This document shows positions 242-36,396 of a stretch of DNA of 64,000 nt, piece by piece. How positions within the stretch are numbered: position 1 is the first letter of the stretch; each line of letters starts with the position of its first letter. The notes beneath the pieces were generated by a model, which was not told the origin of the DNA, made no database searches, and saw nothing but the letters and a program-made list of their open reading frames with translations. Position numbers and translations under genes: made by a program. The DNA comes from an uncultured Thermoplasmata archaeon (lineage in GTDB: Archaea > Thermoplasmatota > Thermoplasmata > Halarchaeoplasmatales > Halarchaeoplasmataceae): assembly GCA_964535805.1 (NCBI GenBank), contig CAZHUM010000002.1:740-64739 (forward strand), given 5' to 3'.

Positions 242-1123
242 TCACGCTCCATCATATATTTTGTTCACTTCTTTCATAACTGTTTCCCATCCAATTTTAT
301 CAACTATCTTGTTGAATTTACTATATTCCTCTTCGTCTAGTTTTAAATTCTCAGAATGAAATTTGTGAATAGATGATGATTCCACTTTCTCATATCCATT
401 TAAAATATCATCTATCAAAGAAACTATCTCTCCCGCAATCAACACCCTACAAACCTTTAGACCCGGTGAGGGGGCGTCTATGAACACGTAGAATCCGTTT
501 ATTTCACTCAGTTCTTTGACCTTCGATGTTAGTAAACTCGTGCTTGAAGATAGTATCAGATGTTTGGACCATCCATCTTCGCCTTCAACGATCGCTTTAG
601 CTTCTTTCTCGTCACTTCCAAACTCGATATTTCCTTCGGAAAGGTGGAAGTCAACAATAAATTTATCAGAGGTCAACAACTCGTGGTCTATCTTACCAAA
701 TCTTCCTCTTTCTACGATAGAACGAAGTAGAGACAAAAAATGTTCATCTTTTTCGATAAGAGACCTGATACTTTCCTTGATGTTATTACGTCCAGAAGCC
801 GAAGGATTCTCTCTTACTTCCTTGACTCCATCTTCCACCCGGACAGTATAATACCTGCCGTAGAACCAGGGAAATAACGGGGTGTAACCATCTTGATTGA
901 TTAGATTCTCTAAACTATCAGGGCGATCGATCTGGTAGATTATATCTGTTATCGATTCGTCGGTCTCTTCTTTCTTCGACTGATCGCTACATTCTTCATC
1001 ATTAGGAGATACCCGTTCTATCAGACCAGCTGAAACCCCATCTCGTTCTATGTCGTAGCAGAATCTTCTCACTATCATTATTTTTTCTTCTTCTGGTGTG
1101 AAATTCATATTATCACTCTCCAT
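242..1123 (-). CDS. hypothetical protein (293 aa), last gene of the AAA+-led cassette
   Basis: Long ORF with a genuine ATG. Overlaps the upstream gene by 11 nt, suggesting an operon. No recognisable catalytic motif. Confidence 0.55.
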   Translation of the reverse strand: MESDNMNFTPEEEKIMIVRRFCYDIERDGVSAGLIERVSPNDEECSDQSKKEETDESITDIIYQIDRPDSLENLINQDGYTPLFPWFYGRYYTVRVEDGVKEVRENPSASGRNNIKESIRSLIEKDEHFLSLLRSIVERGRFGKIDHELLTSDKFIVDFHLSEGNIEFGSDEKEAKAIVEGEDGWSKHLILSSSTSLLTSKVKELSEINGFYVFIDAPSPGLKVCRVLIAGEIVSLIDDILNGYEKVESSSIHKFHSENLKLDEEEYSKFNKIVDKIGWETVMKEVNKIYDGA

Positions 1124-1886
1124 CGATTTCCAACCATTCTTTTATTTTAACTCCGTTTTCTTTGTAATTTGAAACCCAGTCCGAAAATGAACAAACACCT
1201 TTTTTACACCATTGTTTTGTCAATCCTTGATTCGGAAATGGAGCAACTTTAGATTTTATCTCACTTTTTTTACTATTTAACGACAGTATCATTTTTAGTA
1301 TTTTTAATTCTACATCTAGATAATTTGAATTTTTATTTTTTAATTCAATCTCCGTATCATTTATATTGAGTCCGTTTATATGTTTAATTAGTGATTGAGT
1401 TACTGGTTTTTTAAAACTTGATTTTGGTAACATAATAACTATTTTTTTTGGATCTAAACTTTTTATTTCTTTTTCAAGTGCATCCATATAATCAATAATT
1501 TTTTCTTTGGTAATCTCATCAACGTCTTTTATTGGTTGATAAAACAAGTCTGTAAGCCAATATCCGGAATGGATAAAATTGCATAGTCTAGTATATTTAT
1601 TATCATCATTTTCACAATCTTCAAATTTACTTATTAAATCATTGTCTTCCAAAGGTGTTAACAATGCACCAATTAATCCAATTTGTTTTGCATCTTCACC
1701 AACATAATAAAAATAATTCTTAGATTTAGAATATTTTGGAGGACTTTCAGCTATAAACATAACCCTACACATTTTCTTAGCTTCTTCATAGATATCATTA
1801 AACCTTTCATCTAAGTCCCTTTTTGTTCCGTCAATTTCTAAAATTTTTTCTAAACTGTCCGCCTTTATTTCCCGATAATTAACCAT
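1113..1886 (-). CDS. hypothetical protein (~257 aa), strongly AT-rich gene
   Basis: ORF 1113..1898. The first ATG with a GGTGG ribosome-binding site (MVNYREIK) is at 1886. Composition is markedly AT-rich versus flanks. Contains AESPP and GLIGALL segments vaguely reminiscent of UDG-superfamily motif A; this is speculative. Confidence 0.5.
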   Translation of the reverse strand: MVNYREIKADSLEKILEIDGTKRDLDERFNDIYEEAKKMCRVMFIAESPPKYSKSKNYFYYVGEDAKQIGLIGALLTPLEDNDLISKFEDCENDDNKYTRLCNFIHSGYWLTDLFYQPIKDVDEITKEKIIDYMDALEKEIKSLDPKKIVIMLPKSSFKKPVTQSLIKHINGLNINDTEIELKNKNSNYLDVELKILKMILSLNSKKSEIKSKVAPFPNQGLTKQWCKKGVCSFSDWVSNYKENGVKIKEWLEIDGE

Positions 1887-2037
1887 TTTTTCCACCAACT
1901 TTATATCGACATCATCTCTCTTAAATTTTTACCACGCTCATCAATTTAAATCCACATTTTAACCTATGGAACTTCATCCACCATATCAACCCTTGTCCTT
2001 ACCGACGATGGCCATGTACTCTTTCATCTCTTCGATC

Positions 2038-3108: not shown

Positions 3109-4596
3109 TCATGCATATCCCCTAACATCTTCCGGCTCTTCTTCGAGGATTCCTAGATAGGAGTGCATCACCTTACTCCCTTTCAACTCCTCTTCGCAGG
3201 CCTCTTCGAAGTCCTCCATCTCCACGTGATCCCTGCCCTTCCGCATCGCCTTCCTTGCAGCGTTCAGCACGGAGTTCCTGATGTGCCCCCCGGAGAACTC
3301 GTACTTCTCGGCGAGGGTTCCGATACACACGTCCTCGCACAAGGGCGTTTCCTCCGGTATGTGGTACTCCCAGATCTTCTCCCTAGCCTCGGCGTCGGGC
3401 AGTGGCATCTCCAACTTCAGGTCAAGCCTTCTCTCGATCGCCCTGTCCAAGCCGATGGCGATGTTCGTGGTGAATATGATCACTCCGTCGTGGTTCTCCA
3501 TACCCTGCAGTATGATGTTGATGACCCTGTTCTCCGACCTGTCGCAGCTGGACACGGAAGGCGATCTCCTCTGCAGCACCGCATCGGCCTCGTCTATCAG
3601 CAGTATACAGTCCTCGTTCAGGGCGTCGAAGAGCTTGCTGGCGTTCTTCTCGGTATTGCCGAAATAACAGTCCACCATGTCTCCGAAGGACACTTGATAA
3701 AGTTCTTTGTCCAACTCGTTCGCTAGAGCTTTGGCTAACATCGTCTTACCGGTGCCCGGGAATCCAGAGAACAATAGGTTCAAACCCTTCCTTTCGCCTA
3801 TCACCGATTTGAGATTCCACTCGTCAAAGAACTTCTCCGAGTTCTTTTGCTGCTCCGATAGTGATAGTATGGACTCTTTCAAATCTGTGGGTAAAACTAC
3901 CTGAGACAGTTCTACATCTGAATCCACTTTTTTCAGGAATTCGTACTCCTCTTTCTCACCGTTTCCCTTGTGCTCTGTTCTCTCCTGTTTCTCCCCGTAG
4001 AGTCCGTCTATCACCCAATCCGATAGTTCGTATCTCATCTTCTCTGGCGAGGTCCGTTCTCTCCTTCTCCTCCTTTCCCTCAGATGTTTCGGTAAGTAAG
4101 GTCTTTCCCTCTCAAACACTTCTTTAATCAGATCAAATCCCAAAAGTTCACCGGATCTAGTCAACCTCTTCCTGCAGTCCTCGACATCTTCACCTGTCAA
4201 CAACCGCAGAGCCATGATGATCTGTTCTCCAGAAGCTGTCGAGTTCGCTGTTGAAACACCGACACCTTTCTTGGAGAACAGCATCAACAAGATTATCTTA
4301 CTCTCATCTTCCACTTCCCAGAACTCGAAGAACTCGTCGCATTCGAATCCTTTTTCTTTCTTCTTTTCCTCAAGTTCTTCATGCTTTTTCTTAAAATATT
4401 CTATCTTCTCGTCTATCCTTTCGGGCGAAGGGTTCATGATCAGATTCTTCGCTTCGTTCAACAAACCATAATAAAAGGTCCTGGCAGCTCTCAAATATTG
4501 TTTATTGTCTTCGAGTTCTTCTACTTCGTCCATGTCCAGATAGTCACCCATCTGGAGTTTTCTTAATCTATCCAAAATCTCATCTTCTTTACTCAT
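3109..4596 (-). CDS. AAA+ ATPase of the classical AAA clade with a ~270-aa N-terminal domain of unknown function
   Basis: Walker A GFPGTGKTMLAKA and Walker B ILLIDEADAV are present. There is a sensor-2-like region SGGHIRNSVLNAARKAM. Start moved to ATG (MSKEDEIL) with a GGAGGT ribosome-binding site 8 nt upstream. The N-terminal half has no recognisable domain. Confidence 0.8.
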   Translation of the reverse strand: MSKEDEILDRLRKLQMGDYLDMDEVEELEDNKQYLRAARTFYYGLLNEAKNLIMNPSPERIDEKIEYFKKKHEELEEKKKEKGFECDEFFEFWEVEDESKIILLMLFSKKGVGVSTANSTASGEQIIMALRLLTGEDVEDCRKRLTRSGELLGFDLIKEVFERERPYLPKHLRERRRRRERTSPEKMRYELSDWVIDGLYGEKQERTEHKGNGEKEEYEFLKKVDSDVELSQVVLPTDLKESILSLSEQQKNSEKFFDEWNLKSVIGERKGLNLLFSGFPGTGKTMLAKALANELDKELYQVSFGDMVDCYFGNTEKNASKLFDALNEDCILLIDEADAVLQRRSPSVSSCDRSENRVINIILQGMENHDGVIIFTTNIAIGLDRAIERRLDLKLEMPLPDAEAREKIWEYHIPEETPLCEDVCIGTLAEKYEFSGGHIRNSVLNAARKAMRKGRDHVEMEDFEEACEEELKGSKVMHSYLGILEEEPEDVRGYA

Positions 4597-4793: not shown

Positions 4794-5588
4794 ATGACAG
4801 CAAAAGATTCAGGAGTTCATATAACAGCTGGCGGTTTTGAATACGACAGGGTATTGGTACCGATGCTGAACAAGTACCCCGTTGATAAACTGGTGATGTT
4901 CAGGTCTAAAGCTTCGCCTTACACTGAAGCGAGGGACCTAGCCGGAGAATTTCTGACCAAACTTAAGGATAACCCGATCGACATCGACATAGTAAAACTG
5001 GATATCTACGACTTCAACGACGTTTTCATAAACACCCTCGACCAGATAAAGAAATACGCGGAGAAAGGTAAGAAAGTTTACATCAACATTTCTCCAGTAC
5101 CTAAATTGGCCACTGTTGCCATGATAAGTGCCGCTTTCCTATCGAGGTACAAAGACAGCCTGGAGATATTCTATGCATCGCCCAAAGATTACCTGATACC
5201 TAAGATGATGGAATATCTCTCAGACATCGAAAACAAGGATTCTTTGGACAGATTGAAAGAACTCGGAGATAGGTTCATGAAGAACGGCACGGCTGTGGGT
5301 GTGCAAGAGTACCAGGAGATACCGGTGTTCCCCATCAAAGAGATCAACGATGTTGACATGGAGATACTGAAGACCATCAAAGAAAAGGAAGGCGTCCAAT
5401 CCATCGAAGAACTCGTAGAAACGATCAACGAAAACCGAAAAGAAGAAATCAAGCGGTCGAGCGTCCAGTATCGTTTAGAGAGACTGGAAGAGAAACGGAT
5501 GCTCGATACGGAGAGAGAAGACAGGCGGCTGAAGATACGACTCAACCGGCTGGGAGAAGTGTACCTGGAAGGATGTATGCACAGCTGA
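4794..5588 (+). CDS. Csa3-like transcriptional regulator (N-terminal CARF/Rossmann-like domain plus C-terminal winged HTH; HFX_2341-like family)
   Basis: N-terminal HITAGGFEYDRVLVPML matches the T/S-x-GF-D/E motif of Csa3 CARF domains. The C-terminal half is basic and helical (RLERLEEKRMLD..RLKIRLNRLGE), typical of a wHTH. It is divergent from a palindrome-rich intergenic region. Confidence 0.5.
   Translation: MTAKDSGVHITAGGFEYDRVLVPMLNKYPVDKLVMFRSKASPYTEARDLAGEFLTKLKDNPIDIDIVKLDIYDFNDVFINTLDQIKKYAEKGKKVYINISPVPKLATVAMISAAFLSRYKDSLEIFYASPKDYLIPKMMEYLSDIENKDSLDRLKELGDRFMKNGTAVGVQEYQEIPVFPIKEINDVDMEILKTIKEKEGVQSIEELVETINENRKEEIKRSSVQYRLERLEEKRMLDTEREDRRLKIRLNRLGEVYLEGCMHS
5531..5584. repeat. 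direct repeat copy 1 (54 bp, 52/54 identical to 7122..7175); encodes the C-terminal 17 codons of the regulator
   Basis: The sequence is gaagatacgactcaaccggctgggagaagtgtacctggaaggatgtatgcacag. Weaker similarity continues about 20 bp further. Confidence 0.85.
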
Positions 5589-5620
5589 ATCAACACGTCC
5601 CGAGCAGGCTAGAGGAATAA

Positions 5621-6238
5621 TCACTCGAATATATCAGAGAACTGTGAACTTATGGTCCTTTTCAATCCGTCCCGTTTCCTTTCTACCCTTAACCCGACTA
5701 CACGATCAATCTCACTGGAATCCAATTTAATATCTTTTTCTAAAAGCTTTTCTCGTATACCTACAAGATCGTCAAAGAATTTTTCTTTGTTCGGATCATC
5801 CTCAATCCTATCCATATAAGCTTCCGCTTTGGCGGCTATCAGATGTTCGTTCGTCGGCACGTGGACTCCCCTGATTAACTCAGAGGTTTCAGTCATATTC
5901 TGAAGGACCTCTTCCGTTAAAAAGTGTGAGCCTCCGGCATCTATCAATTCAACGGTTATATTTTTATCTCCAATAGTTGCAAAAAAGGTGATACTCGCTC
6001 CATCGGTTTCGATATTGAACGATCCGTTCAGCTCCTTTGCTACCTCTTCTAAACGATCATAGAACTCTTCATATGGGTCGGTAGGAAAGGGATGTACGTC
6101 TATGTCTTTAGTACTCCTTACATTTCCAAATCTATACAACACCGCTGAGCTGCCGAGCAGTAGGATATCTATTCCGTGTCGATTGAAGGCTTCAACAAGT
6201 TTTTTAACACATTCGTAGTGCTCTTTTTCATCGATCAT
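5621..6238 (-). CDS. minimal nucleotidyltransferase-fold protein (205 aa)
   Basis: LLGSSAVLYRFGNVRSTKDIDV matches the GS-x(9-13)-DxD signature of the pol-beta NTase superfamily. It overlaps the upstream gene by 4 nt (ATGA). Confidence 0.6.
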   Translation of the reverse strand: MIDEKEHYECVKKLVEAFNRHGIDILLLGSSAVLYRFGNVRSTKDIDVHPFPTDPYEEFYDRLEEVAKELNGSFNIETDGASITFFATIGDKNITVELIDAGGSHFLTEEVLQNMTETSELIRGVHVPTNEHLIAAKAEAYMDRIEDDPNKEKFFDDLVGIREKLLEKDIKLDSSEIDRVVGLRVERKRDGLKRTISSQFSDIFE

Positions 6239-6972
6239 CTAACAGAGACCTCCTTTATCTTTCCCTTTCCTAGAGCGTTTTGCTTTTCTTTTATATAATT
6301 CGGAAGTTCAACATCGAATTCATTCGGTTTTTTACCACCGTAGCCAGAATAACCCAGCCATAAAAGTTTGTCTTTCATGTTCTGACTAAGTTTCAACCCT
6401 TCAAAGATTTCCTTACCGGCCTTGACTTCTCGTGGAAGATAAGTGGATAAAAAAAGCAGAGCCGTATCCGTTCCGTCGAGTATAGGTAGTTCATATGTTT
6501 GGCCAAACAATTTCAACTTGACCTTCTTTTCAGCAGAAAAATCATAGACAAAATAATCTAATTCACCAAAACCTGGATCTTCGTTGAAAACGACCATAGT
6601 TCTCTCCGGAACATAATCCGCATATGCATTCCCAGAAAAACAAATAAATGCATGAGATAAACCTTCGTGTTCGAACACGGAATTCAATGAGAGTAATTCA
6701 GCATAATAACCCATGGCCGCCCAGCAATTGATCAGTATCGATGGATCCACTGCGAAATACTCACCACGGTTTAATTTTATTGTCAAGTAATAATCCATAG
6801 ACTTTTTTAAAAATTGATCTGCCAAGTTTTTATTGTCTTCTAACATATCCTTTCTTTTAAATCTCTTAGGCGGATTTAAACTAATATATTTTTTAATCAA
6901 CCATCTGGGAGGTACCCTCATGTCTTTTTCATCGAGGGTCGGTATATTATGGACTTTATGTTCTCCTTCCAT
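6235..6972 (-). CDS. hypothetical protein (245 aa), upstream partner of the nucleotidyltransferase
   Basis: ORF with a 4-nt overlap with the NTase gene. AT-rich. No Rx4-6H HEPN motif and no obvious HTH seen. Confidence 0.5.
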   Translation of the reverse strand: MEGEHKVHNIPTLDEKDMRVPPRWLIKKYISLNPPKRFKRKDMLEDNKNLADQFLKKSMDYYLTIKLNRGEYFAVDPSILINCWAAMGYYAELLSLNSVFEHEGLSHAFICFSGNAYADYVPERTMVVFNEDPGFGELDYFVYDFSAEKKVKLKLFGQTYELPILDGTDTALLFLSTYLPREVKAGKEIFEGLKLSQNMKDKLLWLGYSGYGGKKPNEFDVELPNYIKEKQNALGKGKIKEVSVR

Positions 6973-7121
6973 AAAATCACAATATATTAACTATTAATTA
7001 AGTTTTCTGTTTACTTAGCTATGCATTAAGTCTTTAAACTGTTGAACGATATATTAACTATCTTACCCCCCCTCAATTCTCTAACCTATATCAGATTATC
7101 TGAGTCTATGAGTAGAAAGAG

Positions 7122-7175
7122 GAAGATACGACTCAACTAGCTGGGAGAAGTGTACCTGGAAGGATGTATGCACAG
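7122..7175. repeat. direct repeat copy 2 (non-coding remnant of the regulator 3' end)
   Basis: The sequence is gaagatacgactcaactagctgggagaagtgtacctggaaggatgtatgcacag. It has two mismatches versus copy 1. Confidence 0.85.
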
Positions 7176-7215
7176 GCGAATCATCACTTCCCAAGCAGGA
7201 ACCTTGTTCCAGTCT

Positions 7216-7725
7216 TTACAGCACTTCGACTTCTTTGATCTTTATGTCCTTGGCGGGCACGTCGGCATGTCCTCTCTCCTTCAAGGTGTCCACGTCACCT
7301 ATCTTCTCCACAACGTCCATACCATCCACAACTTTGCCGAATACACAGTAGCCCCAACCGTCTCCGGTTCTGTCCCAGTCCAGTCCATCGTTATCCTTCA
7401 GGTTGATGTAGAACTGTGACGTTGCCGAATGCGGTTTACCCGTTCTAGCCATGGCTACGGTTCCCTCCTTGTTCCTGTGACCGCTTTTTTCCGCCTCGTT
7501 CTTTACCGGTCCGTAGGTGGTGTCTTTCTGGATCATACCCGGTTTGAATCCACCGCCCTGCACCACGAAGTTCGGGATGACTCTGTGGAATATCGATCCT
7601 TTAAAGAACCCGTCTTCTGCATACTTAAGAAAGTTTTTCACGGTCTCTGGTGCGTCGTCATCGAAAAGCTCTATCACCAACTCTCCTTCCGTCGTTTTCA
7701 TCTTTACCTTGGTGTTATCTGACAT
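7216..7725 (-). CDS. ppiB: peptidyl-prolyl cis-trans isomerase, cyclophilin type
   Basis: LVIELFDDDAPETVKNF, FHRVIPNFVVQGGG and GTVAMAR..PHSATSQFYIN are canonical cyclophilin motifs. They closely resemble E. coli PpiB. Confidence 0.9.
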   Translation of the reverse strand: MSDNTKVKMKTTEGELVIELFDDDAPETVKNFLKYAEDGFFKGSIFHRVIPNFVVQGGGFKPGMIQKDTTYGPVKNEAEKSGHRNKEGTVAMARTGKPHSATSQFYINLKDNDGLDWDRTGDGWGYCVFGKVVDGMDVVEKIGDVDTLKERGHADVPAKDIKIKEVEVL

Positions 7726-7847: not shown

Positions 7848-8171
7848 ATGAAATTCATATCCATGCTGATAGCACTCACTCCGGATGCGGACAAAGAAAA
7901 GCACCACGCGAAGATAGAAACGGACATGTACGAACTGCACGTCAATCTAGTAAAGAACCAACAAGAAGCGCTGAAAGTGGCAAAAGACAAAGCAGAGACC
8001 GATGGTGTGCAGTCCATCATGCTGTGCCCTGGTTTCACCCATGAACAGGTAGCAGAAATATTCAACGCATTAGACAATGTGTCCGTCACGGTGGCAAGGG
8101 GCGACGGACCCAGCGGTCAGATAGCTAAGGATGCCATGGAAAAGGCGGGATGGACCTCAACAAACGAATAA
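7848..8171 (+). CDS. hypothetical small protein (107 aa)
   Basis: ORF with a TATA-like tttttataa about 25 nt upstream. No motif recognised. Confidence 0.45.
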   Translation: MKFISMLIALTPDADKEKHHAKIETDMYELHVNLVKNQQEALKVAKDKAETDGVQSIMLCPGFTHEQVAEIFNALDNVSVTVARGDGPSGQIAKDAMEKAGWTSTNE

Positions 8172-8271
8172 ATTTAACATAATCTAAGAAACAAGCAGCC
8201 CGGAAATTCCATCATCTAATTCATCTTTAGCTTCCATTAACTGTTCCCTCTGGCAGGTGTAGTACTCTTTT

Positions 8272-9506: not shown

Positions 9507-9743
9507 GTGTCTATATTGAGCGAAGTGACCACTGTTCAAGTCAAGAAAAAAACATTAAAAAAACTACAGATGGAAAAGGAATACCCCAGACAAACGTATG
9601 ATGAGATCATATCAAATATGATCAAGGTCTATGATGATGTCAAGAAAAGTAACCAATACGACGAATTTCTACATAAGATCCAGCAGCCCAAGATGAAAGA
9701 ACTTTGGGACAATCCGGACGACGAGGCTTGGGAAGATGCTTGA
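9507..9743 (+). CDS. putative antitoxin (small DNA-binding protein) of the MazF-like module
   Basis: 78-aa ORF that overlaps the toxin gene by 8 nt. N-terminal TTVQVKKKTLKKL looks like a beta-strand plus helix, as in RHH/AbrB-type antitoxins. Confidence 0.45.
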   Translation: MSILSEVTTVQVKKKTLKKLQMEKEYPRQTYDEIISNMIKVYDDVKKSNQYDEFLHKIQQPKMKELWDNPDDEAWEDA

Positions 9744-10050
9744 ATCAGGGGATGTCGTATTGACAAAGGTACAATTCACAGATACCTTCGAAATAAAGAG
9801 AAGACCTGCTGTCGTTCTTTTCGAAGAGATGAACAATGTGGTGATCGCCGGTATAACAAGTAATTTGAATATGGTTGGGATCCCATTATCCAAAGAAGAT
9901 GGGGCGATTAAGGAGAGTGTTATTAAGTTGAACTACATCTTTACGGTATCCAATCAGATGGTAGAGAGAGTCTTATTTAAATTGAATCAGGACAAAAAGG
10001 AAAAAATCTTTGAAGAGATGAATAAAAAACTACGTTCTCTAAAAGATTAA
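9736..10050 (+). CDS. MazF/PemK-family endoribonuclease toxin
   Basis: GDVVLTKVQFTDTFEIKRRPAVVL...VVIAGITSN follows the PemK/MazF pattern GDIV-x-V-x-FPF-x(5-8)-KxRPALVL...V-x-ITS. Confidence 0.65.
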   Translation: MLESGDVVLTKVQFTDTFEIKRRPAVVLFEEMNNVVIAGITSNLNMVGIPLSKEDGAIKESVIKLNYIFTVSNQMVERVLFKLNQDKKEKIFEEMNKKLRSLKD

Positions 10051-11093: not shown

Positions 11094-11243
11094 CATTCAA
11101 CCTTCGATCAGCTCTTTCTGCTGTCTGCTCCACTCTTCATTGGAGGTCTTTTTCAGCCACTCTACATACAGATCGATGAATTTCAACCTCTCTTCGAAAT
11201 TCCTTTTTCTTTCTTCCTTTAACTCATCCAAGTCGATATTCAT
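11094..11243 (-). CDS. 49-aa charged helical peptide, translationally coupled to the NTase gene
   Basis: ATGA start/stop overlap with the upstream NTase gene. Translation is MNIDLDELKEERKRNFEERLKFIDLYVEWLKKTSNEEWSRQQKELIEGG. Below the ORF-track length cut-off. Confidence 0.3.
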
Positions 11244-11806
11244 TTTGACCACCCGAGATAGTACTTCGCATCCTCGATAGAAATTTCTAAGGCATCCAAA
11301 TATTCTAGTAGCTTGCCAGTATTTAGATTTTTCTCGAAAAGTTTGAACAAAAATCTTGCATCTTCTATGTCCTTTTCAGAACCCATGAATAGTTTAAAAG
11401 CTATTTGTTGTTCAAGAGGAGATATGGGCAGGCGTTTTTCATTTAACAGAACGGTTATCGAGTTCTCAAGTGCTTTTCTATCCATACCAGTATGTTGAAA
11501 TTTGAGTTCTATGTTAGGAATGATCTCACCCTTATAGGCAAAACGAACTGCTATCTTATCCATCAAATACCCTTCATATGCATCTTTCACATCTGAAGTG
11601 ATTATACACTCGAATTCACCACTCAAATTATGCCACAAATCTTCAAATTTTTTATAAGATATATTTTCACACACAACGTCGATATCTTCACTCGTTCGAT
11701 TTCTCCCAAATAAGATCGCTACATAGCCAGATAAGAAGATATGAGAAATATTCAACTGGGATAGATTTTCTGAGAAGTAGATTGCCATCTCATCCAACTT
11801 GTTCAA
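11240..11806 (-). CDS. nucleotidyltransferase-fold protein, paralog of the 5621..6238 gene
   Basis: LSGYVAILFGRNRTSEDIDVV aligns with LLGSSAVLYRFGNVRSTKDIDV of the other NTase. It shares a downstream P-x-E-x-IA-K segment with it. Confidence 0.55.
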   Translation of the reverse strand: MNKLDEMAIYFSENLSQLNISHIFLSGYVAILFGRNRTSEDIDVVCENISYKKFEDLWHNLSGEFECIITSDVKDAYEGYLMDKIAVRFAYKGEIIPNIELKFQHTGMDRKALENSITVLLNEKRLPISPLEQQIAFKLFMGSEKDIEDARFLFKLFEKNLNTGKLLEYLDALEISIEDAKYYLGWSK

Positions 11807-31685: not shown

Positions 31686-32636
31686 CTACTTCACTTTGGG
31701 GACGGGCACCTTTTTGAGTATCTGGTCGATTATATCTGCCGGGTCGACACCCATTATCGCGGGACTGGGTTTAAGGACCAATCTATGTGAGAGTGCTTCC
31801 TTGGCTAGGAATTTAACATCATCCGGTAGAACGTAGTCTCTGCCCATCACCGCCGCGTTGGCCATGGAGACCTTCATGAGAGCAAGACTGCCTCTGGGAC
31901 TGGAGCCGACTTCCACCTGGCTGTGCTTCCTGGTCATCTGCACGATGTTGACGATGTAGTTCTTTATGTCGTCGTCCAGATGCACTTCTTCTACCGATTC
32001 CTGCATCTCCAGTACCGTCTTCGGATTGGTCAGCTTCTTGGTTTCCACTTCATCGGTCTTCCTATCTTTTCTCCTACGAAGGATCTCTACTTCGTCTTTC
32101 TGGCTCGGATAACCGACATCCAAGCGCAGCATGAACCTGTCCACTTGTGCTTCCGGGAGCGGGTACGTTCCCTCGTACTCGATGGGGTTCTGCGTGGCTA
32201 TGACGATGAAAGGCGGTGACATCTTGTGCGTTTCACCCTCGATGGTCGTCTGTTTCTCCTGCATAGCTTCTAAAAGGGCGGCCTGGGTCTTCGGTGGAGC
32301 CCTGTTGATCTCGTCCGCAAGTAATATGTTCGTGAATATGGGCCCCTTCCGCATCTTGAACTCTCCGGTGTTCCGGTCGTAGATGAACGACCCGGTTATG
32401 TCAGCGGGCAGCAGATCCGGGGTGAATTGGATCCTCTTGAAATCACACCCTAGAGCATCGGCAAAACAGTTCGACATCATGGTCTTCGCTAAACCTGGGA
32501 AGTCCTCGAAGAGGATGTGTCCGTTGGCCAAGAAACCGACGAGTGTTTTTCTCAGCACTCTTTTCTTTCCCACTATGGTCTTGCTCACTTCGTTGATCAA
32601 TCCTTTTCCTATCTTAGATACTTTTTCTATCTTCAA
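31686..32636 (-). CDS. moxR: MoxR-family AAA+ ATPase
   Basis: Walker A is FPGLAKT, the MoxR-type PGxAKT variant. Walker B is LLADEINRAPPKTQAALLEAM. The C-terminal region is conserved. Confidence 0.85.
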   Translation of the reverse strand: MKIEKVSKIGKGLINEVSKTIVGKKRVLRKTLVGFLANGHILFEDFPGLAKTMMSNCFADALGCDFKRIQFTPDLLPADITGSFIYDRNTGEFKMRKGPIFTNILLADEINRAPPKTQAALLEAMQEKQTTIEGETHKMSPPFIVIATQNPIEYEGTYPLPEAQVDRFMLRLDVGYPSQKDEVEILRRRKDRKTDEVETKKLTNPKTVLEMQESVEEVHLDDDIKNYIVNIVQMTRKHSQVEVGSSPRGSLALMKVSMANAAVMGRDYVLPDDVKFLAKEALSHRLVLKPSPAIMGVDPADIIDQILKKVPVPKVK

Positions 32637-33301
32637 CTCCAGTCCTCCATTCTATTGATCAAATCTATTATTTTTCTTCTGTAATCTTCATCTTTCTTGA
32701 ACGATCTTCTTGAAGATAGGGATTTATTTTCCCTGCACAACTCCCTATAGTGATTACAATTTATAAGGAATTCGGTGATAACGTCGTCATCGACCTCTTC
32801 TATGAGCCTATCATTATCCTCAAGGAGCTCGTCTATGTGATCTGGTGAATATCCCCTTTCCTGTTTCATCTTCTCGACGAAGTCGTCCATGAGTCTCCCC
32901 TCCAGCATGGCTCTGCTGGTTTCCAATCCCTTTGAGGACCGATTAACCAGATTGGATGTTCTGTTCAATCTAGAACCGACTATTATATCCAGCTCGTTTT
33001 GATTTCTCCAGGTGACCAAGGGAGAGGTTTTATTGTGGAATATCTTCATCAAGAGGGTAGCGACAATCCCCAAAGCCAGTATGATCACCAGCCATCTTAC
33101 ACCTCCACTGTTTCCCACCCAGGGAAGGGACACCAAAAGAAAAAAAGCGAGGATGAGGGCTATAAAGGTGAATATGCTGTCGAGATGATCTAGACCTGAT
33201 TCACGGTTACCTAAAAATGAACTGTATTTGAATCGAGGGACCGCGCGGATGAGGAAATCATCCTCATGCTCATCTTCCATTTCTTCTTCCCATTTGGTCA
33301 T
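32633..33301 (-). CDS. 2-TM membrane protein, paralog 1 of a four-member family
   Basis: An acidic N-terminus and two TM helices are followed by a domain containing W-R/K-N-x-NEL and VGS-K/R-L. It overlaps the moxR start by 4 nt. Confidence 0.5.
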   Translation of the reverse strand: MTKWEEEMEDEHEDDFLIRAVPRFKYSSFLGNRESGLDHLDSIFTFIALILAFFLLVSLPWVGNSGGVRWLVIILALGIVATLLMKIFHNKTSPLVTWRNQNELDIIVGSRLNRTSNLVNRSSKGLETSRAMLEGRLMDDFVEKMKQERGYSPDHIDELLEDNDRLIEEVDDDVITEFLINCNHYRELCRENKSLSSRRSFKKDEDYRRKIIDLINRMEDWS

Positions 33302-33474
33302 CTAGGACCTCCTACCTCGCTGTTTTAAGTTGGAGGAGTAATAATAAATTACATAACTTTCTATAAGACATTTGTGCTCTATAATGCTATTTATACTCCT
33401 GTAGTTTTGTTTGTATAGATTTTTACACTCGTTAACGATAAATTAAAAGAAAGGGGTTTGCTTATTTATCAAAG

Positions 33475-34779
33475 CTATGTATATACGAGACGACAAGCCC
33501 AACTAGTAAGGCAGGGGTTAGGACACATTGGTTCGTTTTTATCGCTGACATACAATCTAGTTGGATGTATTCCACCGTTCAATATCTTAACACCAAGAGC
33601 ATCAAAACCCGAAAAAGTCGCCGTTATTTTTTCTTCAAGGGTTTTACCGAACAAAATAGTTTCGTCGCTCTTCCGCTTATAACGGACAAGCATGTTCATA
33701 TTATCATCGTATCTCATCACCTGATGGAAATGTACCAAACCATTGTTTTTATCAGTTTTAAAAGTAGTAAGGAAAAAGTTGTCCTCAGGTATTATTGTTA
33801 TTACACCATTATAGTCAAGTTCTGTGATTTCATAAAAGTTTAGATGCTTTGTACTTACCATCTTCACTATAGAACTAATATATTGCCCTCTAGTATTGGT
33901 TACCGTATATTTAGTTGTAGTTATTAGTCCAATCTGAGATATTACCTCCGAAGTTATATTTACCTCCGAATTAACCGTATCTACACCCCAGACAGTAAAC
34001 ACTTCTGTGTATGGGTTAAATGAAAAGGCCATTTCAGGAGTTGTTTGAACCAATATATATATAGACTGAGATGCCCCATCGCTTTGCCTTGTGACGTTTA
34101 GTTTGATTGCCTGATTCAAAATTGTGTTCTCAGGTACGTAAAGTGTTTCAGATACCGCTACATTTTCTCCTGGTTGTGCAGTAATTTCTGTTGGTGGTAT
34201 TGCACCTTGTAAAACCCATCCTTCAGGTATTGTTGATTCATCCGCTTCTAATGTAAATGTTTCTTGTGCCATAATATTTTCATTCCTGACATGGATTGTA
34301 TCTGTTGCTGATGTTCCCGGTGCTATGTCCAGGGGAATAACACATTCATGTCCAACATTGTTACCTTCATTCGATTCAGCGATTGTATCTGTTGTGTCTA
34401 GGACCAGTTCGAAGTTCACTTGATAAGATGCAAGTGCCTCCACTACGTATTTAACTCCTTTAATCCCACCAGCTCTGATTGGCGGTTCAACCCATATATC
34501 AAATGTTTCTGTTGGTTCCTGCCAGAAACCAGCTGTTTCCGCATATTTTAATTCCATCCAAAAGCCATCTTCAACATCTGCATCCCCTATATTTTCTATG
34601 TATATAGTCATTGGTAATTCTTCTCCTTCTATTACAGGATAAACAGCGCCTATGCCCTTACCTACTAAATCCGGTTGTCTTTGTTCCGCTTGTACCGCTG
34701 TAGCTGGCATTATAGCCAACCCACTAAAAACCAATAAACCAATCACTAACAGTGACGGTCCTATTTTACTTATATTCAT
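33475..34779 (-). CDS. secreted or surface protein with N-terminal CARDB-like domain
   Basis: A signal peptide is followed by DLVGKGIGAVYPVIEGEELPMTIYIENIGDADVEDGFWMELKY, which has a CARDB-like pattern. It is flanked by AT-rich DNA. Confidence 0.5.
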   Translation of the reverse strand: MNISKIGPSLLVIGLLVFSGLAIMPATAVQAEQRQPDLVGKGIGAVYPVIEGEELPMTIYIENIGDADVEDGFWMELKYAETAGFWQEPTETFDIWVEPPIRAGGIKGVKYVVEALASYQVNFELVLDTTDTIAESNEGNNVGHECVIPLDIAPGTSATDTIHVRNENIMAQETFTLEADESTIPEGWVLQGAIPPTEITAQPGENVAVSETLYVPENTILNQAIKLNVTRQSDGASQSIYILVQTTPEMAFSFNPYTEVFTVWGVDTVNSEVNITSEVISQIGLITTTKYTVTNTRGQYISSIVKMVSTKHLNFYEITELDYNGVITIIPEDNFFLTTFKTDKNNGLVHFHQVMRYDDNMNMLVRYKRKSDETILFGKTLEEKITATFSGFDALGVKILNGGIHPTRLYVSDKNEPMCPNPCLTSWACRLVYT

Positions 34780-35033
34780 GTATATCTCACCTATCAGAAG
34801 TAATGTATTGTTATTATTTATATTTATCGCATATTAGATATATATATATATAATATAGTTTCGATACTTCTTCTCCTCTCATCATCAACCACCCGGTTGA
34901 CAATGTATTACAACCCTGCAGTTATGATCACAACTTCACTGGAACACATTACCTGGCTGAATACCTTTCTAACTTGTCTACATATATAAGAGAGGTTTGT
35001 GTATCTAATTTTCAGTTTCCTTATGTATTTCTT

Positions 35034-35702
35034 TTAACTCCAGTTTTCCATCCTACCGATCACAATTTCGATCCATTCCCTATAATCATCATCAGATTTT
35101 TTATTAATTTTCATATTCGAAAACAACTTTTTATCTCCTCCCGTTTCACGATAATCTTTACAGTGTATAAGGAAATCCGAGATAACATCATCTCCAACGA
35201 AGTTCCGTAATCTGTTAGGATCCTCTAACAATTCTTTTACTTCACTATCAGATAATCCTCTCTCATACTTCATCTCCTCGACGAAGTCGTCCCTTATCCT
35301 CTCTTCCAGCAGTGCTTGACTCATCTCCAATCCCTCGGAAGACCTTCTAACCAGGTCGGAGGTTTCTTTCAACTTGGAGCCGACTAACAGATCCAACTCG
35401 TTTGTATTTCTCCAGCCCATCAACGGACAACTTTTATCATAAATTGTCTTAGCTATAAATGATGCAACTATAGACAGGCTCAAAATAATTATAAACCAGC
35501 GTATCATCCCACTATAAGGTACCCACCAAATCGTCAATAATATAATAGCTGAAAGGAAAACAATTACAAATGAAAAAATATTTTTGAAGCGATCCACCCC
35601 GGATTCACGATTACCTAGTGCAGCGCTGTGTTTGAATCTCTGAGGCATGCGTACGAGATTATCGTCTTCGAATTCGTCTAGATATTCTTCTTCAAATTTC
35701 AT
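35034..35702 (-). CDS. 2-TM membrane protein, paralog 2
   Basis: Same architecture as paralog 1. The C-terminal ~110 aa are near-identical to paralog 3. Confidence 0.55.
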   Translation of the reverse strand: MKFEEEYLDEFEDDNLVRMPQRFKHSAALGNRESGVDRFKNIFSFVIVFLSAIILLTIWWVPYSGMIRWFIIILSLSIVASFIAKTIYDKSCPLMGWRNTNELDLLVGSKLKETSDLVRRSSEGLEMSQALLEERIRDDFVEEMKYERGLSDSEVKELLEDPNRLRNFVGDDVISDFLIHCKDYRETGGDKKLFSNMKINKKSDDDYREWIEIVIGRMENWS

Positions 35703-35724
35703 TGTGAACCGACCTCTATTATCT

Positions 35725-36396
35725 TCAACTCCAGTTTTCCATCCTATCGATCACTTTTTCGATCCGTTTCCTATAATCTTCATTTGATTTTATGTCTACT
35801 TCTACATTCGAAAACAACTTTTTATCTCCTCCCGTTTCCCGATAATCTTTACAGTGTATAAGGAAATCCAAGATAATATCATCTCCAACGAAGTTCCGTA
35901 ATCTGTTAGGATCCTCCAACAATTCTTTTACTTCACTATCAGATAATCCTCTCCCATACTTCATCTCCTCGACGAAGTCGTCCCTGATCCTCTCTTCCAG
36001 CAGTGCTTGACTCATCTCCAATCCCTCGGAAGACCTCCTAACCAGGTCGGAGGTTTCTTTCAACTTGGAGCCAACAACGACATCCAATTCGTTTCTATTC
36101 CTCCAGTTTATGAGTGGTATGCTCCTTTTATGGAATATCCTCAACAGTAGAGAAACTACGATTCCCAATGCTAACAATATACACATCCATCTCAATGCAC
36201 CGCTATTTTTTATCCAGGGAATTAATATGAGAAGGAAAAAGGCGAGGATAAACGCTATAAAAGTAAATATGCTGTCTAGATAGTCTTTACCAGTTTCGCG
36301 CATCCCTAATGCCCCTTTTTCCCTATAATCGCAAATACCTGGGGCCAAAAAATCGTTTTCAACCTTTTCTTCCCATTCTTCATGCAATTTCATCAT
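35725..36396 (-). CDS. 2-TM membrane protein, paralog 3
   Basis: Its 3' ~400 bp are over 95% identical to the paralog 2 region. Confidence 0.55.
   Translation of the reverse strand: MMKLHEEWEEKVENDFLAPGICDYREKGALGMRETGKDYLDSIFTFIAFILAFFLLILIPWIKNSGALRWMCILLALGIVVSLLLRIFHKRSIPLINWRNRNELDVVVGSKLKETSDLVRRSSEGLEMSQALLEERIRDDFVEEMKYGRGLSDSEVKELLEDPNRLRNFVGDDIILDFLIHCKDYRETGGDKKLFSNVEVDIKSNEDYRKRIEKVIDRMENWS

Follow-up and report, generated by a model that had tools for sequence, protein, structure and literature searches.

How did a compact two-gene cassette come to lie between a regulator gene and ppiB in an archaeal chromosome, bracketed by two copies of the regulator's own 3' end? The question is raised by 64,000 nt of contig CAZHUM010000002.1 (hereafter the window), from an uncultured, hypersaline Thermoplasmata archaeon. 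A preliminary description of this DNA had pointed to direct repeats around the cassette and had read them as the footprint of site-specific insertion into the 3' end of a gene. The best explanation of the locus, which we hold tentatively and at a little less than even confidence, is that it is a scar of homology-anchored recombination that left a module of AbiE/MenAT type between the convergent regulator and ppiB genes; both the route and the function of the module are what we infer.

In a collection scan, the loci nearest to this one came from metagenome-assembled genomes (MAGs) of Thermoplasmata and 'Candidatus Saliniplasma'. The comparisons below were made with a set of 33 related loci, labelled L001 and so on. 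Outside the inserts described here the window is ordinary chromosome, with genes for primase, form III RuBisCO, ThiC, TruD, RNase HII and UvdE. The features of the locus are as follows.

4794..5588, plus strand: regulator gene, 264 aa, with an HFX_2341-like N-terminal Rossmann-like domain and a C-terminal winged helix; the target gene
5531..5608, no strand: direct repeat copy 1, 78 nt; functional regulator 3' end (…KIRLNRLGEVYLEGCMHS-stop) plus 20 nt downstream
5598..5608, minus strand: CCTGCTCGGGA motif, on the edge of copy 1 that faces the cassette; the next base completes the 11-mer GCCTGCTCGGG
5621..6238, minus strand: nucleotidyltransferase, 205 aa, DUF2204, Pol-beta fold, GS…DID motif; putative toxin
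6235..6972, minus strand: partner protein, 245 aa, its stop overlapping the nucleotidyltransferase start (ATGA); putative antitoxin/regulator
6973..7075, minus strand: cassette promoter/operator region, AT-rich, conserved with homologous cassettes over the upstream ~100 nt (alignment by eye)
7076..7121, no strand: 46-nt spacer between the conserved promoter and copy 2, with no similarity to any related locus
7122..7199, no strand: direct repeat copy 2, 78 nt; remnant of the regulator 3' end, non-coding (…KIRLN-stop-LGEVYLEGCMHRRII…)
7198..7210, no strand: hairpin GGAAC-CTT-GTTCC between the copy 2 relic and the ppiB stop
7216..7725, minus strand: ppiB, cyclophilin-type peptidyl-prolyl isomerase (Pfam PF00160, 2.5e-48); core gene on the same strand as the cassette

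A displaced regulator end and the DNA in front of it

The 54-bp direct repeats with two mismatches reported in the preliminary description are present as reported: 5531-5584 and 7122-7175 differ at exactly two positions, which are adjacent (CG in copy 1, TA in copy 2). The weaker similarity that it had seen over about 20 bp more is also present and measures 24 nt with five mismatches, bringing the repeat to 78 nt, 71/78 of them identical, at a spacing of 1591 nt (in-register comparison and local alignment). The seven differences are CG/TA at positions 17-18, CT/GC at 55-56 and, within the final 16 nt, three isolated substitutions; a perfect 36-nt core lies between the first pair and the second. 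The edges of the repeat are sharp, with in-register identity at background directly beyond both ends. The left edge (5530/5531 and 7121/7122) falls at an arbitrary codon, and the right edge falls exactly at CCTGCTCGGG in both copies.

No third copy was found in a search of the whole window, whose other long repeats are paralogous genes at 32-36 kb, or in the 33 related loci, orthologous regulator gene ends excepted. Two simpler accounts that had been named at the outset, a local duplication seen in relatives without the cassette and a common repeat family, had no counterpart in these searches. No relative shows such a duplication. Nor does the 78-mer form a repeat family; a motif that recurs at the cassette junctions of relatives matches its last 11 nt only.

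Copy 1 contains the last 58 nt of the regulator gene. Its 54-nt part ends 4 nt before the end of the TGA, and the 17 codons plus stop originally assigned to copy 1 have to be amended to 18 codons plus stop, which are reached only with the weaker extension. Copy 2 is non-coding, as had been proposed: in the regulator frame it reads …KIRLN-stop-LGEVYLEGCMHRRIITSQ…, the in-frame TAG being created by the CG to TA change, and the regulator stop is lost (CTGA to GCGA). Because all of the differences in the coding part of copy 2 (4/4) are disabling or non-synonymous (CGG to TAG, AGC to AGG, TGA to CGA), while regulator orthologues keep …LNRLGEVYL…, copy 2 is, judged by its sequence, a dead relic drifting without constraint as non-coding DNA.

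The DNA between the copies is AT-rich, as first noted. Its G+C is 0.379 (5609-7121), below the window mean of 0.448, and G+C at third codon positions (GC3) is 0.41 and 0.35 for the two cassette genes and 0.57-0.63 in the genes for the AAA ATPase, the regulator, PpiB, a DUF6506 protein and PhoU. Low-GC3 genes are also scattered elsewhere in the first 12 kb of the window. Together with the unrelated contexts in which homologues of the cassette are found in other archaea, and the colinearity with L001 described next, GC3 supports the reading of these 1.5 kb as foreign DNA inserted at the regulator 3' end, and this part of the preliminary description stands. The insert consists of one operon, two minus-strand open reading frames (ORFs) that overlap by ATGA.

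The regulator matches Pfam PF19810 (E=1.5e-23), the Penicillinase_R winged helix-turn-helix (2.7e-5) and NCBIfam HFX_2341 (9e-17). Its orthologues are always divergent to an AAA ATPase gene, and the sequence downstream of the regulator is different in every lineage examined. Neither L001, whose regulator is 75% identical to that of the window, nor L020 has the cassette, and in both of them the regulator has just one 3' end. A hairpin, GGAAC-CCT-GTTCC, stands 28 nt past the regulator stop codon in L001. The window hairpin adjoins copy 2, not copy 1. By nhmmer, copy 2 together with the sequence to its right is colinear with the end of the L001 regulator gene and the hairpin behind it; copy 1 aligns to L001 only as far as the stop codon. 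Because of this colinearity, copy 2 with the hairpin is the displaced ancestral end of the regulator, moved by 1591 nt. Tandem duplication followed by deletion was rejected as the origin of the repeats, since the deletion would have had to end at exact positions and since L001 shows regulator end and hairpin to have been neighbours ancestrally. An ORF downstream of the regulator in L020 was also considered as Fic/Doc-like, an assignment that Pfam did not support.

It could be asked whether the arrangement is an assembly artefact, with the 36-nt core misresolved and the truth being regulator-ppiB plus a separate circular or tandem cassette. The assembly graphs alone permit both resolutions: in each of several runs of a single study, the Logan contigs (k=31) with exact ppiB and cassette come to an end 30 nt into the core, the exact ppiB protein being on contigs of three runs that each stop at this point. 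The artefact is nevertheless extremely improbable. The regulator has its stop codon at the orthologous position only if the core is resolved as in the window, and the alternative reads through ~80 codons antisense to ppiB. In addition, a 36-nt repeat is far below sequencing-read length, and the mismatches flanking the core tell the two copies apart.

An empty or recombined site would read CTCAACCGG, the 36-nt core and GCGAATCATCAC, and a circle would read CTCAACTAG, the core and CTGAATCAACAC; owing to the breaks at the core, filled and empty alleles are indistinguishable in the k=31 contigs. Logan assemblies from several runs, which differ from one another by a few single-nucleotide polymorphisms (SNPs), have identical k-mers across the insertion junctions. 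Because they share these k-mers, the insertion is older than the strain diversification seen across the runs.

Route of entry

Under homology-anchored recombination, the incoming DNA would have carried the cassette beside a copy of the regulator's last 58 nt plus ~20 nt downstream, and this regulator-end stretch would have been the homology used by host recombination. Entry could have been as linear DNA with one homologous end and one illegitimate junction (homology-facilitated illegitimate recombination) or as a circle through a single crossover. The regulator would keep a working end (copy 1), and the resident end would be shifted 1.6 kb downstream (copy 2) and decay there as non-coding DNA. 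A dedicated recombinase would be unnecessary.

This arrangement has precedents in Rhs, contact-dependent inhibition (CDI) and type VI secretion system (T6SS) loci, where a working end, a new module and a displaced old end have been attributed to homology-facilitated illegitimate recombination (PMC5361080). Like the window, those loci comprise a gene body, a new working 3' end, an acquired module and an orphan old 3' end downstream, with no dedicated recombinase and a conserved gene as the homology anchor. Their displaced ends, however, are alternative toxin domains with immunity genes, in arrays in bacteria, whereas the displaced end in the window is a 78-nt dead regulator relic. The window also differs from them in that its new end codes for residues identical to those of the old one, its module is convergent to the gene, and its host is an archaeon.

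A homology-anchored scar leaves the same footprint as the site-specific insertion that was first proposed, and the latter has to be weighed with care. Archaeal elements of the SSV and pNOB8 types have integrases with att sites of such a kind. If the window held a related case, the cassette would be a small integrative element or its remnant, with an attP that mimics the regulator 3' end and with the repeats as attL and attR; a tyrosine integrase would have acted in trans or been lost, and the insert would now be like an integrase-less cis-mobilisable element. We consider this unlikely, while giving it more weight than the other alternatives discussed in this work. The 78-nt direct repeats stand at both insert ends, overlap the 3' end of the target gene and restore the gene, and the perfect 36-nt core has imperfect arms. 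Archaeal integrases with such att sites are well documented (review PMC8371274). Att-flanked elements and their integrase-less derivatives are like the window in that direct repeats bracket foreign DNA and both overlap and restore the host gene end.

Unlike such elements, however, this locus has no integrase or remnant of one, its insert is a single operon of 1.5 kb, its repeats are 9% diverged, and no attP-bearing relative was found. The lack of an integrase in the cassette, already claimed in the preliminary description, was confirmed, as no integrase fragment was found there and neither of the two ORFs, which fill all but ~160 nt of the insert, is recombinase-like; no integrase domain or tyrosine recombinase was found among ~37 window ORFs scanned, a set that left out some small ORFs. 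A larger element that had decayed would need deletions reaching to within 12 nt and ~50 nt of the two att sites. No regulator-like sequence was found on any of the cassette homologues compared, and the viral contigs searched held no relative of the 245-aa protein and no exact match to the core. The repeat has no notable inverted-repeat architecture: shuffled sequences folded as well as either of its strands (z = +0.8 to -1.0), and no attC-like hairpin was found in it. Likewise, no free or differently integrated att copy and no empty attB turned up in genome, metagenome or viral collections, in which the nearest regulator was 75% identical. Of the original proposal, then, foreign insertion at the gene end holds, and site-specificity is not demonstrated by a locus with no integrase, no significant repeat fold and no regulator sequence on the homologues of its cassette.

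Homology-anchored recombination is preferred to site-specific integration because nothing recombinase-like is present and the insert is an operon only, because the right edge of the repeat is explicable as a natural boundary of homology, because gene-end relics recur at the junctions of this cassette family (see below), and because the same architecture has been attributed to this route in the Rhs, CDI and T6SS loci.

Several points weigh against the explanation we prefer. The empty site envisaged in the preliminary description was not found at strain level: in searches of genome collections, metagenomes and proteins the closest regulator orthologues were at most 75% identical, and an exact look-up of the regulator returned no match. 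Nor was a donor locus found, with the cassette beside a regulator orthologue and no relic, or a cassette elsewhere flanked by the same repeats. A compact cassette, repeats over a gene 3' end and a 36-nt core are also exactly what attL and attR would look like, and the recurrent motif on which the repeat edge falls could itself be a recombination site. In addition, the link of the 245-aa partner to AbiEi is weak (E=0.0045 over 31 residues, with a structure model of low confidence).

The repeat could also be a true 78-nt target-site duplication, in which transposition-type or break-repair insertion filled in staggered nicks 78 nt apart. The equal extent and sharp edges of the two copies would suit such an event, which we nevertheless judge very improbable. 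No terminal inverted repeats were found at the insert ends, there is no transposase, and flanking repeats are likewise absent around the window's other low-GC inserts. Known target duplications in prokaryotes are of ~2-15 nt, against the 78 nt of this repeat. A transposable element or miniature inverted-repeat transposable element was rejected, given the lack of inverted repeats at the insert ends and the duplication of 78 nt.

The scar is a nucleotide-resolved example of a cassette of toxin-antitoxin or defence type entering the core chromosome of an uncultivated archaeon without a mobile-element gene, and the decay of its relic makes the event datable. If the homology-anchored route is correct, displacement of gene 3' ends would extend beyond bacterial polymorphic-toxin loci and would be a general way of adding accessory modules beside conserved genes.

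The cassette proteins and their relatives

The ATGA overlap and the GS...DxD motif that had been noticed in the cassette were both confirmed. The nucleotidyltransferase matches Pfam PF09970 (DUF2204; E=7e-11) and not PF08843, and it matches the PADLOC AbiEii model at E=4e-6 over part of the model length. Its AlphaFold2 (AF2) model had a predicted local distance difference test score (pLDDT) of 87.7. Foldseek searches with this model returned ANT(2'')-Ia first, followed by H. pylori JHP933 and the M. tuberculosis TglT/MenT3 toxins. These matches had E=5e-5 to 8e-4 and query TM-scores of 0.42-0.54, with JHP933 and TglT/MenT3 at 9e-5 to 8e-4.

The 245-aa partner had no match in Pfam, NCBIfam, PADLOC or PDB sequence searches, and Pfam matched none of 10 members of its family. 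This family is very small, with only 24 representatives among 1.8e9 proteins in an exhaustive profile search. By hhalign, residues 48-78 of the partner (…FL…L..KL.RG.YFAVDP) gave a weak match to the winged helix of an AbiEi_4 protein in L021 (7.7% probability), and one distant family member matched Pfam AbiEi_4 at E=0.066. The AF2 model of the partner, built from 10 sequences, was poor (pLDDT 41). It is possible that the partner has an AbiEi-like winged helix at about residues 48-78.

The promoter region of the cassette contains two sets of boxes arranged as direct repeats, 6979-6994 / 7046-7061 (15/16 identical) and 6991-7007 / 7019-7035, and similar boxes (AAAACTTAAC-ATAG) are kept upstream of homologous cassettes. 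We regard these boxes as candidate operators through which the 245-aa protein may regulate its own operon.

At all homologous loci, on ~10 other contigs, the order of the pair is constant, with the partner first and the nucleotidyltransferase overlapping it. These pairs lie amid PIN, MazE, RHH, DUF2283, DUF433, Pol-beta and AbiEi/AbiEii modules, often on one strand; such arrays were found in L021 (Aenigmatarchaeota), L018 (Saliniplasma), L006, L007 and L013. In one set of MAGs, the same cassette block (2.5 kb, 99-100% identical) is preceded by three different left contexts. The DUF5615 gene is intact in L013, and in L015 the gene body is missing and a 38-nt relic of its 3' end (129-166; 89% identical to L013 943-980) precedes a cassette block that is 100% identical to that of L013 over 2.5 kb. 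L014 has a third, unrelated left context for the same block. Because the same block stands in three left contexts, one of them with the DUF5615 relic, recent recombinational exchange with gene-end relics at the junctions is seen directly in this cassette family.

Based on the DUF2204 assignment, the AbiEii hidden Markov model (HMM) match, the JHP933 and TglT/MenT3 folds, the ATGA-coupled operon with the partner first, and the array context, the cassette is putatively a horizontally acquired, self-contained operon that functions as an AbiE/MenAT-like toxin-antitoxin or abortive-infection module, a label that describes a likely way of working and not family membership. Like AbiE and MenAT/TglT-TakA, it is a two-gene operon in which the partner precedes an overlapping nucleotidyltransferase of Pol-beta fold, and all of them have repeat boxes in the promoter and are sited in toxin-antitoxin or defence islands. 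Its similarity to AbiEii-like toxins is weak by HMM and clear by fold. Unlike AbiE, however, the window enzyme is a DUF2204 protein (PF09970) and no AbiEii/DUF1814 protein (PF08843), and with its 205 aa it is shorter; its partner has no detectable family membership. In short, the scar resembles known 3'-end displacement and att-flanked integrase-less elements, and the cassette resembles AbiE/MenAT but joins a DUF2204 enzyme to an unclassified partner. DUF2204 nucleotidyltransferases are in this way linked to a new, very small partner family, as a testable candidate for an AbiE/MenAT-like archaeal system.

Two variants of the cassette were seen. In the 1615 nt compared, a Logan contig (L033, from three runs) differs by four SNPs only, all of them within 34 nt (6885-6918) at the 5' end of the 245-aa gene; the other variant (L005) has two SNPs, both synonymous.

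Edge motif, intergenic repeats and other inserts

The motif at the right edge of the repeat recurs in related archaea. The 11-mer GCCTGCTCGGG terminates the intergenic elements that we term family B. In L001 and L020 the CCTGCTCGGG motif follows the regulator gene and is oriented as it is in the window. It was found at cassette boundaries in L013 (three copies), L023 (two copies), L022, L001 and L020, and in other archaea it marks the point at which neighbouring cassettes start to differ, which is where the repeat edge would be expected if natural homology between donor and recipient simply ended there. The motif can be read in two ways, either as the natural limit of homology between orthologous loci or as a recombination site; the second leaves the 58 nt of duplicated coding sequence without explanation. 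The hairpin-rich family B elements are listed here.

L013 ~90-245, 2523-2655 and ~5620-5775; L023 ~6600-6770: family B
L001 5530-5680 and L020 3240-3625, minus strand: family B
L021 near 4388, 8344, 9886 and 11392: family B

Family B elements vary in length (130-390 nt) and share the blocks GGGACTGCCGAC…, …ACCCCGCCCT… and …GCTGGC…, together with a terminal hairpin (CTCCCCGA-AGGCCTGC-TCGGGGAG) whose terminal motif is the edge of the window repeat. Close relatives (L001 and L020) differ by gains and losses of small GGAAT…ATTCC hairpins. L023 has a 64-nt repeat (4972-5035 and 6753-6816; also L022 ~8125-8190), 94% identical, that begins at CCTGCTCGGGGAG and runs through a TTTAAATA box to an ATG. 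One of its copies heads a DUF433 gene and the other heads no annotated gene; the latter may be a relic of a cassette 5' end.

A second family, A, consists of repeats of ~90 nt.

L006 2781-2871, 5193-5279 and 7460-7550; L007 2253-2344, 4250-4324 and 4497-4586: family A
L018 2426-2512, 7017-7108 and, partial, 3968-4005: family A
L021 1416-1486, 2630-2713, 6734-6817, 7428-7506 and 12072-12143: family A

The 15 copies of family A (…GAYCGAGC…TGAGGATAGG…GGTGGG…GAGTGT…) stand after gene cassettes and in every case share the strand of the genes. Covariation backs a 10-bp helix and two inner helices, with 92% of cells paired, a value that 0/500 shuffles reached and that compares with 23-53% in slid controls. 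Because it has many U·G pairs, family A is probably a sense-strand RNA structure. Rfam had no match to either family, or to anything else in the window or the related loci. The presence of family A in the window was ruled out by nhmmer. A 32-nt repeat around the L018 cassette was considered as a target duplication and rejected; because it is equally similar to a third family A copy (L018 7017-7108), it represents family similarity. These two uncharacterised intergenic repeat families at cassette boundaries are the more unusual material of the related loci.

Such material raises the prospect of motif-directed cassette exchange, in which the CCTGCTCGGG hairpin motif ending family B would be a crossover site for integron-like shuffling in hypersaline Thermoplasmata and DPANN archaea. 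In both copies the repeat edge coincides exactly with the motif, which is met again at cassette boundaries; the L023 64-nt repeat begins at it too, and relatives have co-oriented cassette arrays with conserved repeats between them. We nonetheless think this improbable. A crossover at the motif would duplicate the motif only, not 58 nt of regulator coding sequence, and the other repeat edge is at an arbitrary codon. There is no canonical attC (no R''/R' boxes, no significant hairpin) and no recombinase was identified; in the window the motif is not over-represented (5 found against 2.95 expected), and family A elements resemble sense-strand RNA structures. We give an equally low probability to the broader proposal that CCTGCTCGGG-ending family B, and perhaps family A, are the sites of an undescribed integron-like capture system of Thermoplasmata and Aenigmatarchaeota, one without canonical attC or IntI, which captured the window cassette.

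Integron cassettes, including archaeal ones (PMC9668308), are like the window in offering a small, promoter-proximal cassette of toxin-antitoxin type, and like the arrays of its relatives in having co-oriented cassettes with conserved repeats between. Unlike integron sites, however, the window repeat is host coding sequence, with no R''/L''/L'/R' architecture, no significant fold and no IntI, and the repeats of the relatives behave as sense-strand RNA structures. An integron cassette proper was rejected on the lack of an attC-like fold, the host coding nature of the repeat and the absence of any Rfam match.

Low-GC genes were also noted in other parts of the window. At 11097-11806 (minus strand) lies a second small nucleotidyltransferase-like gene, of 188 aa, with a GR…SEDIDVV motif, a GC3 of 0.36 and a weak AbiEii match (E=0.011). 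It is followed by an overlapping 51-aa ORF whose counterpart on Logan contig L025, called as 48 aa, has a precomputed annotation as DUF8150. These genes may be another toxin-antitoxin-like insert. At 9507-10050 (plus strand), a 104-aa toxin of PemK/MazF type (E=1.6e-7) follows an overlapping 78-aa DUF7557 protein, and the two make up a low-G+C toxin-antitoxin pair of type II. Two overlapping genes at 242-1898 (minus strand), of 293 and 261 aa and with no assigned function, have a G+C of 0.39 and 0.28, the 261-aa gene having a GC3 of 0.20, and gave only weak PADLOC matches (DpdH and CARF-like). This pair is probably another foreign insert.

Two further sets of repeats were observed. Three tandem 33-nt units at 2868-2971 lie within a small minus-strand ORF (2820-2984) and encode a repeated …DLEICKK.L… peptide. 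The paralogous genes at 32628-36396 (minus strand) are three in number, of ~222 aa each, two of them in tandem with a 691-nt period; they share repeats of 196-300 nt at 69-91% identity and adjoin genes for a MoxR AAA ATPase, two DUF4129 proteins and a CARDB protein.

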